Shown here: piece by piece, positions 3,148 to 34,622 of the stretch
How the letters are laid out: the number at the start of each line of letters is the position of its first letter
How positions within the stretch are numbered: position 1 is the stretch's first letter
NCBI GenBank assembly: GCA_964605735.1
Contig: CAZSDS010000001.1
Location: 573,864 to 637,863, forward strand
Length of the DNA: 64,000 nucleotides
DNA from: an uncultured Candidatus Saccharibacteria bacterium
GTDB taxonomy: Bacteria > Patescibacteriota > Doudnabacteria > UBA920 > O2-02-FULL-48-8
Direction: 5' to 3'
Notes under the pieces: model-generated
The model's database searches: none
What the model was told of the DNA's origin: nothing
What the model saw: only the letters and a program-made list of their open reading frames with translations
Program-made: the position numbers and the translations under genes

Positions 3148-4401
3148 TTACGGCAGGAACGATTTAAACCATTTTCGCATACGGTTGACCGTATCATTTT
3201 CCAGGACTTTTTTGGCAAATTTGTTAACTGAATGGGACGAACCCAACAGATACTCATTAGCCCAAAGAACAAGGCCTACAGCAGTGGCAAAAGCCGGATC
3301 ATTTACGCGGTCAATAACCGTGGTAACCTGACCTGGGGTGCCTAATGTCACTGGCAGGCGCAGCTGCTTTTTGGCTAATTCTACCACACCTGGAAGTTTC
3401 GCACCGCCCCCGGTCAAAATAACTCCGGCTGGCAATTGTCCGTCCTTGCCCACGCGCTTGAGTTCCTTGTTAACCAGGTCAAAAATTTCTTCTAACCTTG
3501 CTTCGACAATTTCAGCAATGTGCTTGGTGGAGACTTTGCCGTCTTCCTGCTTGTCTATCTTGGACAAATCAACATCCAGATCTTTTTTTACTTCTTTGGC
3601 TTCCGCGTAAGCGTACTGCAGTTTCAGTTTCTCAGCTGTGTCCACAGAAGTGCGCAAACCAATAGCCAAGTCATTGGTGATGTGAGTTGAACCGACTGGC
3701 AGGATGGTGCTCATGACCAAATCGCTTTCCTCAAACACAACCATGCCGGTTGTGCCGCCGCCCAAATCAATCACGGCAACACCCAGCTCTTTCTGTTTCT
3801 TGTTCAAAACAGCTTGCGCTCCGGCCAGTGGCGCCAAGACCAGATCATCGATTTCAATGCCTGCCTGCATGATGCATTTGGTCAGGTTCTTGATAAACGG
3901 AACAGAAGCCTGGATGATTTGAGAATCAACTTCCAGGCGGATGCCGGACATGCCAACCGGATCTTTAATCCCCTTTTGGCCGTCCACAGTAAAGGTTTTT
4001 GGAATGACGTGCAGAATTTCGCGGTTTGAAGGGATTGAGATAGCCTGCGAGGCATCCACTACCCGGACCACATCATTTTCTGTGACTTCCCCGTCAGCAC
4101 GGGCAACTGCCACAACTCCATGGCTTTCCTGGGAAGAAATATGAGCCCCGCCCACTGAAACCACAGCATGATCAATGGAAAGCCCTGTCATGCGCTCAGC
4201 TTTTTCCAAGGCCTCAGAAATGGAAGACACCGCTTCGTCTATATCAACTATGACTCCGCGGCGTATGCCAAGAGACTGGGCTTCACCCACGCCAATAATG
4301 CTTGGATGACCGATCTCAGATTCCTGTTTTCCAATTACCACTCGGATTGTGCTTGACCCAACATCCAATCCGACAAAGATTTGTTCTTTAGCCATGGACA
4401 A
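3148..4401 (-). CDS. ftsA: Cell division protein FtsA (actin-like ATPase)
   Basis: 417 aa. The sequence IFVGLDVGSSTIRVVIG and the DLGGGTTG motif match FtsA. It lies immediately upstream of ftsZ. Confidence 0.95.
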   Translation of the reverse strand: MSMAKEQIFVGLDVGSSTIRVVIGKQESEIGHPSIIGVGEAQSLGIRRGVIVDIDEAVSSISEALEKAERMTGLSIDHAVVSVGGAHISSQESHGVVAVARADGEVTENDVVRVVDASQAISIPSNREILHVIPKTFTVDGQKGIKDPVGMSGIRLEVDSQIIQASVPFIKNLTKCIMQAGIEIDDLVLAPLAGAQAVLNKKQKELGVAVIDLGGGTTGMVVFEESDLVMSTILPVGSTHITNDLAIGLRTSVDTAEKLKLQYAYAEAKEVKKDLDVDLSKIDKQEDGKVSTKHIAEIVEARLEEIFDLVNKELKRVGKDGQLPAGVILTGGGAKLPGVVELAKKQLRLPVTLGTPGQVTTVIDRVNDPAFATAVGLVLWANEYLLGSSHSVNKFAKKVLENDTVNRMRKWFKSFLP

Positions 4402-4437: not shown

Positions 4438-4881
4438 TTATTTTCCGGATAATTCTTCTTTTGCGATTTTGGAAACCACAGAACCGTCAGTCTGGCCTTT
4501 TGCGCGCGCCAAAACTTCCTTCATGACTTTGCCAAAATCAGCCGTCGTCGCGTTGGTTTCCGAAACAACTGCGCGCACCAGTTCCCTGACCTGGTCTTCA
4601 CCCATCTGTTGCGGCAAGTATTTGACCAAAACAGCCATTTGCTTCTCTTCGTGCTCAACTAAATCTTGTCGGCCGCCGGATTTGAAGCTGTCGATTGAAT
4701 CCTTATGCTGTTTTACTTTTTTGGCGATGACCTTAAGAGCTTCTGCTTCATCAAGGGCGCTTCCCTTTTCTATCTCAGCGTTCTTGATTTCAGATTTGAT
4801 GCTGCGCAAAGCGCTCAGGCTGACTTCGTCCTTGGAGCGCATTGCGGTTTTAAAGTCTTCGTTTATTTGATCGAGTATCAT
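4438..4881 (-). CDS. yqeY: GatB/YqeY domain protein
   Basis: 147 aa. The N-terminus MILDQINEDFKTAMRSKD... matches the YqeY family. The rpsU-yqeY pairing is a conserved arrangement. Confidence 0.85.
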   Translation of the reverse strand: MILDQINEDFKTAMRSKDEVSLSALRSIKSEIKNAEIEKGSALDEAEALKVIAKKVKQHKDSIDSFKSGGRQDLVEHEEKQMAVLVKYLPQQMGEDQVRELVRAVVSETNATTADFGKVMKEVLARAKGQTDGSVVSKIAKEELSGK

Positions 4882-28788: not shown

Positions 28789-29763
28789 TTAGATTGCTAA
28801 TTTCTCAACCTCCACTGTTTCCTTTTCTATCCTGATAAAACCGGCTATTCTTAATACTTTAAATATCGCCCAGCTTAAGAGTAATACAACCCAATTAAAG
28901 ACAAAAGCAAAGGTGCGCATCAGTGCCAGAACCAGGACCGTGAAGAACAACGGGAAAAAATCCTCATACCTCCCCAAGCCTTCCCGCAGTCTTTGCGTCG
29001 CGACCTCGGTTAGAGCCACTCTCAGAGTGACATTGTCGTCCGCGTCCACGCCGAACTGCTCTGCAAAATTCTGCCTGATCTGGTCAAGGAGCTCTCTTTG
29101 CTGGCTGGCGGAAACCTGATTGAATTCCGGATACTGCTGTTCAGCCTGCTTTCTGAAGAATTCGCTCATTCGTTGACTGAGATTGTATTGGGAGCGGTCT
29201 TGCGCCAGCAGTGGGACGCCGCTCACTGCCGTCTCGCCCAATTTTCTGTAGTACTGATCGCGGTCGCGGTTAAAGTCTTCGCTGACACTGGAATAAACCA
29301 CGAATCCCAACAGAATCAAGAACGCATATGTGATGATTATCTGGCTGTTGCCAAGCGTTCGCCTGATGGAAAAGTTCAACTGGTTCGTTTCCTCCCCCTG
29401 CACGCGTCCCTGGAAAAACAAATTTAACAGGAAGAATATTACCCCGCCGATAAAAACGTAAATGTCCCTCGGCATGATCACTAAATATGTAATCAGCCCG
29501 ATGGCGTTGAAGATGAAAAAGGTGAATTTATCCGGCCTGGTTAAGGCAAAGATGCTGACCACCGCCACCCAGACTGCAGAAACCCCGGCGGTGTAAGCCC
29601 AGAAACTGGGATGCCTGCCGCCGAACATGGATTCGCTCAACATCCACCAGTTTAAAACCAGCAGAGCAGAAGACAACAACCCCAAACTAATTTGCTTGAA
29701 ATGCTTTCTGGCTTCAGATCTGTTCGCCTGCGCCTGCCTAATGCTCTCGCCGATTTGTTCCAT
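28789..29763 (-). CDS. Hypothetical polytopic membrane protein inserted between dnaK and dnaJ
   Basis: About 324 aa from the internal ATG at 29763. The track ORF to 29874 would overlap the upstream gene by 95 nt, so the start is ambiguous. It has at least four TM helices and a Q-rich soluble segment. I recognise no family. Confidence 0.5.
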
Positions 29764-29779
29764 ATTTGTTTTATGAAGG

Positions 29780-30085
29780 TTAAGATTGGGTTTTAAAGCC
29801 GAAGTCCGATTTTGACTGCGACTCACCTTCATTAATTGTACCAAATTGTTGCTCGTAGCGGCCGAGATTTTCATTCAGTGCCGCCAGGATGCGCTTGAAG
29901 TGCCCTGGACTGACAATCACCCTTGAGCCAACAATCCCCTGCTGGCCCACAACGTTCATGAAGTCAAAAATGAACTCTTCTTTGGTATGTATGACCTGCA
30001 TCAGGTTTGAATAGAAACCTTGAAGCTTGTCATCATTAATCTTGATTTGGATCTGCTGGCCCTGGTTTGGTGGTTGTTGTGACAT
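29780..30085 (-). CDS. DUF3467-like small protein
   Basis: 101 aa. FYSNLMQVIHTKEEFIFDFMNV...SRVIVSPGHFKRILAALNENLGRYE matches the DUF3467 pattern as I recall it (ysNl..i.hs..EF.lDF...sRii.sP.haKrll.aL.eNi..YE). Confidence 0.55.
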   Translation of the reverse strand: MSQQPPNQGQQIQIKINDDKLQGFYSNLMQVIHTKEEFIFDFMNVVGQQGIVGSRVIVSPGHFKRILAALNENLGRYEQQFGTINEGESQSKSDFGFKTQS

Positions 30086-30107: not shown

Positions 30108-31985
30108 TTACTCTTTTTTATTTTTTTCTGTGAATTCGGCATCAACAGGTCCGTCTTCTTTGTTTCCTGAACTGGAGTTGCCGGACTTGTCAGCGCCTGG
30201 TTGTGGATTTGATGACTGGTTTTGTTGATACATGGCCGCTCCCACTTTCTGTACAGCATTAGAGAGCTCATCCATTGCTTTCTTGATTGCCTCGACATCA
30301 TCCTTATCCTTAACTTCCTTCAGGGCTGTAATCTTGTCTTCCACCGCTTTCTTGTCATCCGCATTAGCCTTATCTCCCGCATCTTTCAGGGTGCGTTCAG
30401 AAACAGAAATCATGGTATCTGCCTGGTTGCGCATTTCAATGGTCTCCTTGCGCTTGCGGTCCTCCTCAGCATGAGCCTCCGCTTCCTTCTTCATGCGCTC
30501 AATTTCATCTTTGGAAAGGTTTGAAGAACCGGTAATGGTAATGTCTTGAGATTTTCCGGTTGCCTTGTCTTTGGCCGTTACCTTCAAAATACCGCTGGCA
30601 TCAATGTCAAAAGTCACTTCAACTTGCGGTACGCCACGCGGGGCTGGCGGAATGCCATCCAAATGAAATCTTCCCAGAGACTTGTTGTCATGAACCATCG
30701 GACGCTCGCCCTGGACTACGTGAATTTCCACGGAAGTCTGGTTGTCAGCGGCGGTTGAGAACACCTGAGACCTGGAGGTGGGAATTGTGGTGTTGCGTTC
30801 AATCAACGGAGTTGCCACTCCGCCCAAAGTCTCCAATCCAAGCGTCAAAGGGGTAACGTCCAAAAGCAGAATATCCTTCCCTGCGGCATCCCCGGACAAA
30901 ACTCCGGCCTGCACTGCAGCGCCCTTAGCCACGGCTTCCATAGGGTCAATGCCGCGCTCCACCTGCTTGCCAACATAATTTTCCACGAATTTCTGGACTA
31001 CAGGCATGCGGGTCGGACCGCCAATCAAAATAATCCGGTCAATGTCCTGGGGTGTCAGTTTGGCGTCGTTGAGGGCCTGTTCAACCGGGTGTTTCATCCG
31101 ATCTATGATAGGTTTGACCAATTCCTCAAGCTTGGCTCGGGTCAATTTCAGCTCTAAAGTTTTGGAACCGCCGGCTGGATCCGGAGCAATAAACGGCAAG
31201 ATAATGTCGGTTTCGAAAACTGTTGAAAGTTCAATTTTAGCCTTCTCAACTGCTTCGCGGACGCGGTTCATTGCCATTGGATCTGAAGCCAGATCAATTC
31301 CGGTCTTTGATTTGAAATCAGCAATAACGTAATCAATCAAAGCCTGGTCCATGTCTTTGCCGCCCAGCTGTGTGTCGCCTGAAGTTGCCTTAACTTCGAA
31401 TGTCGCCTTACCTCCCTCTTCCGCAAACTCCATGATAGTCACATCCAGCGTTCCGCCGCCTAGGTCGAACACCAAAATCTTCTGTTCCTTGCCGGCCTTA
31501 TCCAAACCGTAGGCGAAAGCCGCAGCTGTTGGCTCGTTGATTACGCGAACCACTTCCAAGCCTGCAATTTCTCCTGCGTTTTTAGTGGCCAAACGCTGAG
31601 AGTCATCAAAATATGCCGGCACGGTAATGACAGCCTTAGTCACGGGTTCGCCGATAAAAGCCTCTGCGTCCTTTTTAATTTTCTGCAGGATGAAAGCTGA
31701 AATCTGTTCTGGGCTGTATTCCTTACCATTGAGTTTAAACCTATGGTTTGTGCCCATTTTCCTTTTTGCTTCGAACACTGTCCCATCCGGATTTGTCACG
31801 GCCTGGCGCCTGGCAGGCTCACCAACCAGCAACTGCCCCTCTTTTGTAAATGCAACGTATGACGGGAACGCTTTACCGGCTACGGTCATACCTTCCGCAG
31901 AAGGGATTATAACCGGCTTGCCGCCTTCCATCACTGACGCTGCCGAGTTGGAAGTACCCAAATCAATTCCGATAATTTTTGGCAT
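30108..31985 (-). CDS. dnaK: Chaperone DnaK (Hsp70)
   Basis: 625 aa. [18 protein letters not shown] and the other Hsp70 signatures are present, along with an acidic C-terminal tail. Confidence 0.97.
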
Positions 31986-32043
31986 AACTATTTCCTTTAG
32001 TGCTTAATACTGATAAAATTAACCCAACCAATAAGGAGGTGCG

Positions 32044-32235
32044 ATGCGCAAATCGTTTGCTAAAATCGCCAAGTTCCTTTTTCTGTTTGTAAGTGCAGTA
32101 GCTGTTTTGTTTTTGCTCGTGATCTCCCCTTGCTACCGCCTGCTGAATGCGTACCTTACGCGGAAGCTGCGCAGGAGCCAGGCCAACCAACGACCAATAA
32201 ACCAAGTAGTCGCAAGCTCGCCTCGCCGCCCGTGA
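32044..32235 (+). CDS. Small hydrophobic/basic protein (63 aa) transcribed divergently from dnaK inside the heat-shock locus
   Basis: AAGGAGG lies 5 nt before the ATG. An extended -10 (TGaTAAAAT) is upstream. The stop codon sits inside an intrinsic terminator hairpin. The N-terminus is a TM helix and the C-terminus is Arg/Lys-rich. Confidence 0.45.
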   Translation: MRKSFAKIAKFLFLFVSAVAVLFLLVISPCYRLLNAYLTRKLRRSQANQRPINQVVASSPRRP

Positions 32236-32271
32236 AATTTACTGATGCGTTTTTCACGGGCTTTTTGTTTT
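32229..32271 (+). terminator. Rho-independent terminator (plus strand) between the sORF and the hsp20 3' end
   Basis: Hairpin cccgtgaaatttactgatgcgtttttcacggg followed by ctttttgtttt. Confidence 0.65.
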
Positions 32272-32686
32272 ATCCCTTAACCTCAATTTCAACTTTGCGA
32301 GGCTTGACCTTTTCGCTTTTTGGCATGGTAACCTTCAGAACGCCGCGTTCACAAACGGCTGAGATTCCTTCAGCGTCAACTTCCGTAGGAAGGGCAATGC
32401 TTCGGGCGAAACTTCCACGTCTGACTTCCTTGCGGTAGTAATCGCGGTTCTTGTCTTCAGTCACCTGCTCATCCCCGCCTTTGATGTGCAACACATTGTT
32501 CTCAATTTCCACGTTTATTTTCTTTGGATCAAGACCTGGAATGCTAATCTCAGCAACGACCTCATTATCAGTTTCATAAAGGTCGACTTCGGGTGACTGC
32601 ATTCGGCCGACTATCGGCATGAAGAAATCATCTTCAAAAAATCTGTCGAGTTCCCTGAAAGGGGTAAACCTAACTAAATTTGCCAT
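32270..32686 (-). CDS. Small heat shock protein (Hsp20/alpha-crystallin family)
   Basis: 138 aa with an alpha-crystallin domain (DLYETDNEVVAEISIPGLDPKKINVEIENNVLHIKG...GVLKVTMPK). Confidence 0.9.
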   Translation of the reverse strand: MANLVRFTPFRELDRFFEDDFFMPIVGRMQSPEVDLYETDNEVVAEISIPGLDPKKINVEIENNVLHIKGGDEQVTEDKNRDYYRKEVRRGSFARSIALPTEVDAEGISAVCERGVLKVTMPKSEKVKPRKVEIEVKG

Positions 32687-32742: not shown

Positions 32743-33294
32743 TCAGCCAACAATTTTATTTTTCCTGGCAACCACTACTTTTGCTGGGATGATGACCCTG
32801 CCATTGAGCGTAAAGCCCGGCTGAATCTCCTTAACAATCCCCTCACCGTCAGACTCCTCTTCCTGTACTGCCTCATGGAGATCAGGGTTGAATTTCTCGC
32901 CGACCGTTTTGATTTTGGCCAGGCCCAGCTCTTCCATTGTTTTCTCCAACTGAATTATTGTGGCCTTCAGGCCCAACAGCCAGTCCTTGTACTTGTCGTC
33001 ATTGGGCGCGTACTTTAAAACCTGCTCCAGGCTCTGCAACGAAGGCATTAACTTCATCACTGTCATTTCCTTGCTGTACTCAAGCAGCTCCCTGCTTTCC
33101 GTCTCTTTGCGGCGTTTGAAATTTTCAAAATCTGCGGCCGCCCGTTTCCAGTTGTTCAAATATTCTTCGTTCTCAGCCCTCAACTTATCCAGTTCACTCC
33201 GCAATTTGCCCTCTGTTTGCTCGCTTGCTTCATCGCCGTTTGAAACGGGACCGTCGTTTTGCGTCATTTCATCTTGCATATCTTCGTTAGACAT
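32743..33294 (-). CDS. grpE: Nucleotide exchange factor GrpE
   Basis: 183 aa. It has a coiled-coil N-terminus and the GrpE motif NWKRAAADFENFKRR. Confidence 0.9.
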   Translation of the reverse strand: MSNEDMQDEMTQNDGPVSNGDEASEQTEGKLRSELDKLRAENEEYLNNWKRAAADFENFKRRKETESRELLEYSKEMTVMKLMPSLQSLEQVLKYAPNDDKYKDWLLGLKATIIQLEKTMEELGLAKIKTVGEKFNPDLHEAVQEEESDGEGIVKEIQPGFTLNGRVIIPAKVVVARKNKIVG

Positions 33295-34030
33295 AAACCA
33301 CCATAATCAGAACAGCGGAACCGGAAATCAGTTTAGACAAAAACTCAAGAATAGACATATTTTTGGCATATGACATCCTCTTTGGCCCAACAATCCCAAT
33401 CAGCCCTTTCTTGCCGTTCTTTAACTTAATTTTAGAAACCATCAAACTCATGTTTTTGGGCATAGGCACCGGCACTTCAGTCCCTATGAATGTTTCTGTT
33501 TTGTACTCGGCATGCTTCATGAGCTTGTCGGCATGCTGGTCAATCTGGTCAAAAAGCTCTGCCACGCCCTGGATAGTCCTTGAATCGGACAAGTCAGGCT
33601 CAGTAATGATCCTGGAAAGTCCGGCGGCTGATGTGTCATGGGGCAGGAGCGTGAAAGCGGCTTGGCCTGAAACCTCGGCCACCAATTTTGAAATAGATCG
33701 GCCCAATTGCTCATGGGCAGCCTGCAATTTGACCAATTCCGCACGGAGCATTTTGCGCTCGCGCTCTGAAAGCTCAAACCTCTGCATCAGCTCATTAACG
33801 AAGAACCTGTAGCCTTTGTCTGTCGGCACCCTGCCCGCAGATTTGTGCGGCTGGGAGATATAACCCTTCTTTTCCAGAACAGCCATTTCATTTCTTATGG
33901 TTGCAGGGCTGACGCTGAGGTTATATTTTTCCACCAATTCTTGCGACCCAACAGGCTGTGCCGCTTCTGAGTATTCCTTAACGATAGCAGCCAGTATTTT
34001 CTGCTGTCTTATGTTTATTTCTCTTTCCAT
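33287..34030 (-). CDS. hrcA: Heat-inducible transcription repressor HrcA
   Basis: 247 aa. Its N-terminal winged HTH (RQQKILAAIVKEY...PVGSQEL...SPATIRNEMAVLEKKGYISQPH) is typical of HrcA. It overlaps grpE by 8 nt. Confidence 0.9.
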   Translation of the reverse strand: MEREINIRQQKILAAIVKEYSEAAQPVGSQELVEKYNLSVSPATIRNEMAVLEKKGYISQPHKSAGRVPTDKGYRFFVNELMQRFELSERERKMLRAELVKLQAAHEQLGRSISKLVAEVSGQAAFTLLPHDTSAAGLSRIITEPDLSDSRTIQGVAELFDQIDQHADKLMKHAEYKTETFIGTEVPVPMPKNMSLMVSKIKLKNGKKGLIGIVGPKRMSYAKNMSILEFLSKLISGSAVLIMVVYV

Positions 34031-34092: not shown

Positions 34093-34119
34093 TTAGCACT
34101 CGCTTCTTAAGAGTGCTAA
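34093..34119. promoter_or_regulatory. CIRCE operator 1 (TTAGCACTC-N9-GAGTGCTAA), a perfect consensus
   Basis: ttagcactcgcttcttaagagtgctaa lies just downstream of the predicted hrcA -10. Confidence 0.9.
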
Positions 34120-34138: not shown

Positions 34139-34165
34139 TTAGCACTCAACGTTGTCAAGTGCTAA
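34139..34165. promoter_or_regulatory. CIRCE operator 2 (TTAGCACTC-N9-aAGTGCTAA), with one mismatch
   Basis: ttagcactcaacgttgtcaagtgctaa. The embedded TTGACA on the minus strand is the likely hrcA -35 (TTGACA-N17-TATTAT). Confidence 0.8.
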
Positions 34166-34175
34166 AAGCAACAGA

Positions 34176-34207
34176 AAATAAAAAAACCGCAGGGGTGTTC
34201 CTGCGGC
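34176..34207 (-). terminator. Rho-independent terminator after the NUDIX gene
   Basis: On the minus strand, hairpin ccgcaggaacacccctgcgg followed by ttttttt. Confidence 0.7.
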
Positions 34208-34211
34208 GCAA

Positions 34212-34622
34212 TCAGTCCGAAAACATGCGGTTGCTTTGGATGGCTTGGAGGAGCTTCCGGTGCCCGAAAAAAAGCGGCTGTGGCAGATTTTCAAAGGAGA
34301 ACCACCCCCAGCCAGAAAAGCTGTCAGGTTCGGTCAGCTTGGGGTCTTTGTCCGTATTCGCAAAGAACGTCACCTGTATGTAATGTTCATTGCACTCTTG
34401 GCGCGGATCATTCGTAAGGTTTACGAAGACCAGATCCACAAGCTCAATCCCCGTCTCCTCACGCACTTCCCTGATGGCGCCTGAAACCAGGGATTCAAAA
34501 GCGTCAAGCTTGCCCCCGGGCAGGCACCATTCCCCCTGTCCAACACCTCCTTTCCTTTGACCAAAAAGGACTCTGCCGTTCTTGCGCACGACGACGTTGA
34601 CGCCGATTTTTGGTGCACTCAT
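34212..34622 (-). CDS. NUDIX hydrolase
   Basis: 136 aa with the Nudix box GKLDAFESLVSGAIREVREETGIE. Confidence 0.88.
   Translation of the reverse strand: MSAPKIGVNVVVRKNGRVLFGQRKGGVGQGEWCLPGGKLDAFESLVSGAIREVREETGIELVDLVFVNLTNDPRQECNEHYIQVTFFANTDKDPKLTEPDSFSGWGWFSFENLPQPLFFGHRKLLQAIQSNRMFSD

Follow-up and report, generated by a model that had tools for sequence, protein, structure and literature searches.

Firmicutes carry hrcA-grpE-dnaK-dnaJ operons that are controlled by HrcA and the CIRCE (controlling inverted repeat of chaperone expression) operator. A related operon lies on the minus strand of a 64,000-nucleotide stretch of DNA from an uncultured Candidatus Saccharibacteria bacterium (contig CAZSDS010000001.1, positions 573,864 to 637,863), which we refer to as the window. 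It resembles its Firmicutes counterparts in having a tandem pair of perfect CIRCE operators, a sigma-70-type promoter upstream of hrcA, and the order hrcA-grpE-...-dnaK-...-dnaJ. It differs from them in that hsp20 follows grpE, in that a DUF3467 gene and a gene for a membrane protein of 324 to 361 amino acids (aa) stand between dnaK and dnaJ, and in that a small gene on the opposite strand, together with two RNA hairpins of the operon strand (H1 and H2), precedes dnaK. This small gene and the two hairpins are the subject of the present analysis.

Three kinds of described systems come closest to the small gene. Bacterial small membrane proteins have been reviewed for Gram-positive species (PMC10730256). 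Our gene shares with small single-pass membrane proteins a length of 50 to 65 aa, one transmembrane (TM) helix, a basic juxtamembrane tail, and its own promoter and terminator, as well as the narrow phylogenetic range and the tendency to be missed by annotation that are often seen among them. What sets it apart is that it has no sequence relation to any described family, that it lies antisense within a heat-shock operon, and that its 3' third coincides with a conserved RNA stem encoded by the opposite strand. In the type I systems of Bacillus subtilis (bsrG/SR4 and yonT/SR6), antitoxin RNAs overlap the toxin gene at its 3' end (PMC6562991, PMC3834814, PMC5848175); the 3' portion of the toxin mRNA is the target of these antitoxins, and temperature sensitivity is a property of three of the systems (PMC6562991, PMC5848175). 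The points in common are a hydrophobic peptide (~40 to 60 aa), a predicted antisense RNA over the 3' region, poor sequence conservation, and, as regards three of the B. subtilis systems, a connection with temperature stress. The locus differs in that we found no dedicated antitoxin gene, so that the only antisense RNA would be operon read-through, and in that the Shine-Dalgarno (SD) sequence is not specifically sequestered and the peptide matches no family. In the excludon, finally, opposite-strand neighbors have overlapping transcripts, and one suppresses the other via transcriptional interference and RNase III (PMC7154746, PMC12288877). Overlapping opposite-strand transcripts are also expected here, where the overlap is inferred from sequence only; unlike in an excludon, the whole small gene sits inside an intercistronic region of the operon and does not overlap a long untranslated region of a divergent neighbor.

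The gap between hsp20 and dnaK spans positions 31986-32269 (284 bp), and its plus strand, antisense to the operon, carries what reads as a complete small transcription unit. An extended -10 element, TGATAAAAT (TG, one base, TAAAAT; 32011-32019), has the TGn form of sigma-70-type promoters, and the promoter that it predicts would produce a leader of ~17 to 25 nucleotides (nt). A 9-nt SD, AAGGAGGTG (32033-32041), which contains AAGGAGG at 32033-32039 and which we take to be the full complement of the 16S rRNA 3' end, precedes an open reading frame (ORF) of 63 codons (32044-32235; ATG at 32044, TGA at 32233-32235). The encoded peptide has a short basic N terminus, one TM helix at about residues 9 to 31 (nt 32068-32136; Kyte-Doolittle mean of 2.75 over residues 9 to 27), and a basic C-terminal tail with a net charge of +8. 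AlphaFold2 models it as a single long helix covering residues 2 to 49, with a mean predicted local distance difference test score of 75.

The unit ends in a predicted intrinsic terminator (32228-32271, plus strand). Its stem, H1 (32228-32261), is a 10-bp G+C-rich helix, GCCCGTGAAA/TTTCACGGGC, that holds the TGA of the small gene inside its 5' arm and is directly followed by the T-run TTTTTGTTTT (32262-32271), which runs into the complement of the hsp20 stop codon. On the plus strand, then, a G+C-rich stem-loop is followed by a U-run; on the minus strand, H1 has an A-run before it, GGCGGCGAGG after it, and no U-run, which makes it a terminator for the plus strand only. Our consensus scanner missed this terminator because it allows loops of up to 8 nt and the loop of H1 has 14. 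An earlier note, made from the letters of the window alone, had described the gap, the extended -10, the AAGGAGG, a 63-aa ORF with a TM helix, and a stop codon inside a hairpin with a T-run, and every one of these elements is present. Its remark that the terminator abuts the hsp20 stop proved exact, in that T-run 32262-32271 overlaps the complement of that codon.

With hsp20 as an anchor, we gathered hsp20-dnaK junctions from about 15 distinct lineages, whose loci are numbered from L001 onwards. Their taxonomy is that of the labels of the closest contigs, namely Patescibacteria/Saccharibacteria-like metagenome-assembled genomes (MAGs), with some bins labeled otherwise. Two contigs encode an identical Hsp20 protein, one of 797 kb at NCBI and one from Logan, L001, whose sequence matches the window at 99.1% identity along 7.5 kb; the small ORF is annotated as a gene in L001 and differs from that of the window at four nucleotides, one of which changes an amino acid. 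A metagenome scan yielded one duplicate and one short-gap locus.

An SD-led TM ORF with its terminator has been kept in this slot, in the same orientation, in six diverged lineages (window/L001, L002 [= L023], L003, L039/L040, L041/L042, and L043), and the refuting condition named in the earlier note, a reading frame that relatives do not conserve, thus does not apply. These one-TM ORFs encode 49 to 65 aa, start with ATG or TTG, reach Kyte-Doolittle values of 2.45 to 3.33 in the TM segment, and end in a hairpin plus T-run abutting the hsp20 stop. The Hsp20 proteins of the same loci are 69 to 83% identical to that of the window, and the peptides have diverged to 26 to 42% identity. A 74-aa antisense gene has also been called in a JGI contig (gene call only). 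In three more lineages (L006, L044, and L053; loci L006, L044 to L046, and L052 to L054), the slot is filled by a protein of 105 or 106 aa with two TM segments, whose gene has the same SD, orientation, and terminator placement as the one-TM type. The two-TM proteins are homologous to one another (45% identity, E = 6e-24) and share an invariant EGEP..W.CQG loop (EGEPWIWxCQG). At least six lineages have no antisense gene, and their gaps measure 70 to 190 nt (L004, L005, L024, L047 to L049, L050/L051, L055/L056, and one further contig).

The signals around the ORF recur with it. AGGAGG or GGGAGG lies 4 to 9 nt before the start codon in all nine ORF-bearing lineages, and a hairpin followed by five to eight T is likewise found in nine of nine, with stem sequences that differ. 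Elements of the TGnTAnnnT type occur at the equivalent site (L043, TGATATAGT; L041, TGCTATAGT; L039, TGGTTTAAT; L003, TGTTAAACT), and TGn with a -10 matching 4 to 5 of 6 positions is present in five of the six one-TM lineages. The lineages that lack an ORF all keep the hairpin, and none of them has the plus-strand T-run; the A-run after the hsp20 stop, which is the antisense of this T-run, is limited to ORF-bearing loci. No comparable SD-led ORF exists on the sense strand of any one-TM locus. As a test of chance, we made 3,000 dinucleotide-preserving shuffles of the gap and scored the plus strand for ORFs of 45 aa or more with an SD before them. Such ORFs arose in 0.4% of the window shuffles and in 0.4 to 2% of those for each small-gap locus; once a TM-grade stretch was also demanded, the values fell to 0% and to at most 0.03%, respectively.

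We consider it likely that the ORF is a translated small membrane protein gene. In nearly all pairs of a protein-guided alignment, conservation is highest at codon position 2 and lowest at position 3. Three of the four ORF substitutions between the window and L001 are synonymous (rough p = 0.05, on the assumption that about one-quarter of random changes are synonymous), and the best six-frame match of the L043 peptide in the 64-kb window is the small ORF (E = 4e-4). The proposal of an independent plus-strand unit, antisense within the heat-shock locus and equipped with its own promoter, SD, ORF, and terminator, is one that we share with the earlier note, and the product is most likely a single-pass membrane peptide, with a basic tail that by the positive-inside rule is probably cytoplasmic in most members.

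Searches for relatives of the peptide did not lead beyond the clade. Word-indexed homology searches with the peptide and with a six-member profile returned clade members only, and an exhaustive HMMER search of 1.84 billion representative proteins retrieved the same three clade proteins and no relatives outside the clade. There was no curated-family match above threshold in Pfam, NCBIfam, PHROGs, or PADLOC, and sub-threshold matches were inconsistent between members. Pfam DUF1378 (phage membrane proteins of ~59 aa) scored 17 bits against a cutoff of 25 and PHROG 494 reached an E value of 0.004, each with the window peptide only; we regard both as generic matches to a TM helix with a basic tail because the relatives each match a different, unrelated family below threshold. 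A lipoprotein was also rejected, since the window has I-S-P-C (Pro at -1) in place of the lipobox [LVI][ASTVI][GAS]C and the Cys is absent in L043 and L002, as was a signal peptide, since no AxA site follows a short h-region and the hydrophobic stretch of 17 to 23 aa has TM length. A resemblance of the juxtamembrane segment YRLLNAYLTRKLRR to DnaK-binding motifs was not relied on, as such segments are typical of any membrane anchor. By these comparisons, the predicted peptide family is fast-evolving, orphan, and confined to a sub-clade of Patescibacteria/Saccharibacteria-like bacteria, and the small gene appears as an orphan, nested antisense in the heat-shock operon, whose position is conserved in a narrow clade.

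A 10-mer, CAACCAATAA, stands just before the SD of the small gene in the window (32023-32032, plus strand). The same 10-mer occurs upstream of dnaK in L006 and L044 on the operon strand, i.e., in the opposite orientation relative to dnaK, and its recurrence may be a coincidence.

The same DNA carries structure on the other strand. Read on the operon strand (minus), H1 is a stem-loop (32228-32261) directly after the hsp20 stop that has no U-run, and immediately 3' of it, under codons 45 to 62 of the small ORF, lies an imperfect RNA hairpin, H2 (32176-32227). H2 is a newly recognized, strand-specific, covarying RNA hairpin of the operon. Across seven lineages, 95% of the cells of its 15-pair helix are paired and 6 of the 15 pairs have changed on both sides, whereas control structures slid by 1 to 3 columns are only 23 to 50% paired; none of 500 shuffles reached the observed percentage of pairing or the observed count of cells changed on both sides. 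RNAalifold independently predicts the helix, with seven compensatory pairs. The fold energy of H2 is -26.2 kcal/mol on the minus strand versus -10.2 kcal/mol for the plus-strand copy. G.U pairs account for 21 of the 101 cells; on the plus strand these would turn into A.C mismatches, leaving only 76% of the cells able to pair. A covariance model of H2, run against 387 kb made up of the window and the loci, had its sole match at the H2 site itself, on the operon strand; because the model found no new members, support for H2 rests on the seven training lineages. Rfam identified only two tRNAs in the whole window at gathering thresholds and, in the gap at E values up to 10, only two chance-level matches far below gathering scores. 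Folding z-scores for the gap as a whole are weak (-1.2 for the plus strand and -2.0 for the minus strand), and it was the local analysis of H2 alone that proved informative.

A stable hairpin follows hsp20 directly in every relative, and a sense-strand U-tract does so in none. Neither H1 nor H2 is a canonical terminator on the operon strand, because neither has a U-run; they are probably a 3' stabilizer, a processing site, or a pause site. The only conserved motifs of the peptide (R/S-x-A-N-Q and S-P-R-x-P, or ANQ and SPRxP for short) fall in the codons over H2, and in L002 and L041 the ORF stops before part of the H2 region while the DNA there is still conserved. The ORF of L002 (= L023) ends at a TAG 11 codons early (~4478-4520), and the same frame continues through S-P-R-R-P to a second stop; the early TAG could be a recent nonsense mutation, or the constraint of H2 and H1 could be keeping the DNA intact.

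One locus is a natural knock-out of the small gene. In the L047 gap (3418-3573; L047 to L049), ~140 nt have been deleted, including the SD, the start codon, and the TM part. Relative to L041, the -10 has degraded to TGTTACGAA and the T-run has decayed, and a 3' remnant of the ORF (GRANP and the stop codon) is kept. H1 and H2 are intact in L047 and ~96% identical to those of L041, and the flanking genes are 75% (hsp20) and 81% (dnaK) identical in nucleotides. The gaps of L041 and L047 share two near-identical, mutually complementary blocks, one of which is downstream of the L041 stop codon.

The regulation of the small gene has to be considered together with that of the operon. On the minus strand, the order in the window is two CIRCE operators with a promoter, hrcA (33287-34030), which is the first operon gene and lies 3' of the CIRCE promoter region, grpE (32743-33294), hsp20 (32270-32686; PF00011), the gap, dnaK (30108-31985), the DUF3467 gene, and the membrane-protein gene; hsp20 is convergent with the small gene, and dnaK is divergent from it. 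The perfect CIRCE operators form a tandem pair at 34093-34119 and 34139-34165 upstream of hrcA, and the second overlaps a TTGACA-17-TATTAT promoter (34158-34130). A scan for the inverted repeat TTAGCACTC-N9-GAGTGCTAA with up to three mismatches revealed no CIRCE in the window beyond this pair. Most relatives have one or two copies upstream of hrcA, which is the only position at which CIRCE occurs in the window or in any of the 19 loci that yielded one, and none was found before dnaK or within the hsp20-dnaK gap in any locus scanned. A half-site-like TTAGTGCTTAA near the dnaK start (31998-32008) was rejected as a CIRCE, as it forms no inverted repeat and is mutated in the near-identical L001. 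Because CIRCE is found only upstream of hrcA, HrcA-dependent induction of dnaK should need read-through of the gap.

We think it reasonably probable that these elements work together, an antisense small membrane-peptide gene on the plus strand lying over the H1/H2 RNA of the operon on the minus strand, with reciprocal, excludon-like expression of the two. The plus-strand layer would consist of the extended -10 promoter, the leader with its perfect SD, the 63-codon ORF, and the terminator exactly at the hsp20 stop; the minus-strand layer would be the hrcA-grpE-hsp20-dnaK transcript, bearing after hsp20 the adjacent H1, made from the DNA of the terminator stem, and H2. While HrcA represses the operon, the small gene would be transcribed and its transcript would terminate before hsp20, the U-run terminator keeping antisense transcription out of that gene. 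Once the operon is active, the small gene would be suppressed by head-on transcription and by an RNA of ~240 nt that is complementary to it throughout. Mutually exclusive expression is predicted because transcription would be head-on and the read-through RNA would pair with the whole mRNA of the small gene. The sequences show the anatomy of the unit, its conservation, its modular loss, and the strand-specific covariation of H2; that the unit is transcribed and translated, that the peptide enters the membrane, that read-through occurs, and that regulation is reciprocal are steps that we infer from the arrangement of the DNA. The suggestion in the earlier note that the small gene could interfere with hsp20/dnaK read-through is plausible and would be consistent with the distribution of CIRCE. 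We also considered whether an anti-SD-like CACCUCCUUA on the operon strand masks the dnaK SD, and we rejected this since the complementarity extends over only ~5 bp, the pairing is missing from the predicted fold, and the motif is absent wherever the small gene is absent.

Several observations weigh against this reading, and some of them bear on the coding status of the ORF. The codon-usage log-likelihood is -0.03 per codon, a value that 98% of chunks of real genes exceed and that spurious ORFs also reach; the model was trained on 28 ORFs of 250 aa or more, and the score is not decisive for a TM peptide. Pairwise similarity among the peptides is weak and mostly insignificant, with only the comparison of the window and L043 marginal (E = 0.006 at a database size of 1e6), and an exact look-up of the peptide found no record, the source genome included. 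The public-collection gene caller left uncalled a 65-codon, TTG-start ORF in L043 (1763-2064) that has the full SD, TM, and terminator architecture; members of the small-peptide family are under-annotated. The shuffle probabilities given above are not simply multipliable across lineages, because these are related by descent. Profile-profile comparison detected no similarity between the one-TM and two-TM types, which we therefore do not claim to be homologous. The patchy distribution means that the small gene is dispensable. The conservation of the Arg/Pro-rich tail is better explained by the RNA stem than by the peptide: the Arg/Lys-rich C terminus that the earlier note had pointed out exists, with its charge of +8, but its conservation is not usable as evidence of peptide function because the tail largely mirrors the G+C-rich stem of the operon strand. 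Lastly, a -10-like TATTAA lies on the minus strand 18 nt upstream of the dnaK start (32005-32010 in plus coordinates), back-to-back with the -10 of the small gene, and CATTAA or TATTAA upstream of the dnaK SD is seen again in most relatives; this motif may be a weak dnaK promoter, in which case read-through would be less needed.

The earlier note had likened the unit to type I toxins and proposed a search for an antisense RNA overlapping it. On such a reading, a membrane-damaging peptide would be neutralized by operon read-through RNA or by a fragment of it stabilized by H1 and H2. At 63 aa with a TM segment, the peptide fits the size and hydrophobicity of type I toxins (usually <60 aa), and it is also charged in the tail, fast-evolving, patchy, and easily lost; its gene is convergent with the neighboring unit and completely overlapped by it, and the conserved, stable H2 of the antisense partner sits exactly over the 3' part of the peptide mRNA, a position that recalls the B. 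subtilis antitoxins acting on that part of the toxin mRNA (PMC6562991, PMC5848175). We nevertheless regard this explanation as doubtful. No promoter- or terminator-like site for a discrete small RNA (sRNA) was found on the minus strand of 31986-32269 (by consensus scan, a weak test), nor any Rfam sRNA at E values up to 10; operon read-through could replace a dedicated antisense RNA. The leader is short, the SD is perfect, and pairing of the SD is not above that of codon-shuffled controls in eight of the nine loci (in the window, the pairing probability is 0.99 versus 0.77 +/- 0.16 for the controls, 6.5% of which reach 0.99). The peptide matches no toxin family (Hok/Gef, Ldr, Fst, TisB, Ibs, BsrG, TxpA, and others; Pfam, NCBIfam, and PADLOC at E values up to 1 or 0.1), it has no paralogues within the 64-kb window, and we found nothing in the literature on the small gene or on type I toxins in Patescibacteria. 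H2 is kept in L047 after the loss of the supposed toxin, which means that it has another job. The likeness to type I toxins thus lacks a family match, a discrete antitoxin sRNA, conserved SD sequestration, and paralogues in the window.

Two other explanations dispense with the peptide. The functional product could be the RNA or the act of transcription, the antisense unit insulating or tuning hsp20 versus dnaK through collision, as an RNase III substrate, or as a roadblock, with an ORF that is tolerated or incidental. That the peptide sequence is barely conserved, that two unrelated-looking proteins fill the same slot, that the codon-usage score is not decisive, and that strict conservation is limited to the promoter, the polarity, and a terminator positioned right at the hsp20 stop all speak for this idea; but such a device needs neither a perfect, correctly spaced SD in nine lineages nor a frame that always encodes a TM-grade helix, the two-TM type is conserved at the protein level with its invariant EGEP..W.CQG loop, and the codon-position and synonymous patterns lean towards coding, so we hold it to be unlikely. 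We find it highly improbable that there is no gene at all and that the ORF, the SD-like motif, and the T-run are by-products of lying antisense to an intercistronic spacer that is structured and A-rich. H2 and H1 are indeed complementary to the C-terminal third of the ORF, the T-rich stretch encoding the TM helix is the complement of the A-rich spacer, and the ORF is not on record for the source genome; against this, promoter, SD, start, ORF, and T-run co-occur in nine lineages and are missing or have decayed jointly in loci with a short or deleted spacer, and only ORF-bearing loci have the A-run behind the hsp20 stop. A bolder version of the joint reading is that the peptide gene was overprinted antisense to H1 and H2, with the hsp20 stop and A-run recruited as its U-run, and that HrcA-controlled read-through serves as the antisense regulator, so that the peptide is made only when the operon is off. 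In this version, to which we give little credence, the peptide could act at the membrane as a toxin or a brake on growth, or it could be a partner of the chaperone system on the membrane side.

Some further features of these loci were noted. Between dnaK and dnaJ lie the DUF3467 gene (29780-30085) and a multi-pass membrane protein gene (28789-29874), both on the minus strand; the membrane protein (324 to 361 aa) has no Pfam match. The full order of dnaK, DUF3467 gene, membrane-protein gene, and dnaJ is found in L001, and the first two or three of these genes keep their order wherever a locus extends far enough. With these two genes, the chaperone operon has an unusual extension that is linked to the membrane. 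A terminator-like hairpin, GCCGCAGG...CCTGCGGT, followed by T7 (34186-34207, minus strand), is located shortly upstream of the CIRCE region and presumably ends the transcript of the NUDIX gene before it (34212-34622, minus strand). In the two-TM loci, an inverted repeat, TTAAATC(C/T)A ... T(G/A)GACTTAA, with a spacer of 2 to 27 nt, occurs between the two-TM gene and dnaK (L006, ~4790-4830; L044, ~3810-3860; L053, ~3310-3345). On the dnaK strand, the one mismatch in this repeat would form a G.U pair, which suggests a conserved hairpin or operator upstream of dnaK; the window is without this repeat.

The practical value of the small gene is modest, given that the clade is narrow and the gene dispensable. 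H1 and H2 are a candidate new cis-RNA of the hsp20-dnaK junction, and the L047 remnant can be used as a natural control. The locus also shows one DNA stretch under a dual constraint, in which one strand encodes a peptide tail and the other a covarying RNA stem, and it cautions that an RNA signal can lie behind the conservation of a peptide motif. Small proteins are almost unexplored in the Patescibacteria, or candidate phyla radiation, whose reduced genomes leave little room for useless genes. An unannotated membrane-peptide gene that has long persisted on the wrong strand of the main chaperone operon is a concrete candidate for a stress-linked small protein or an antisense control device. If the overprinting version were true, it would amount to a hybrid of type I toxin-antitoxin system and excludon, wired to the heat-shock circuit of ultra-small episymbiotic bacteria.

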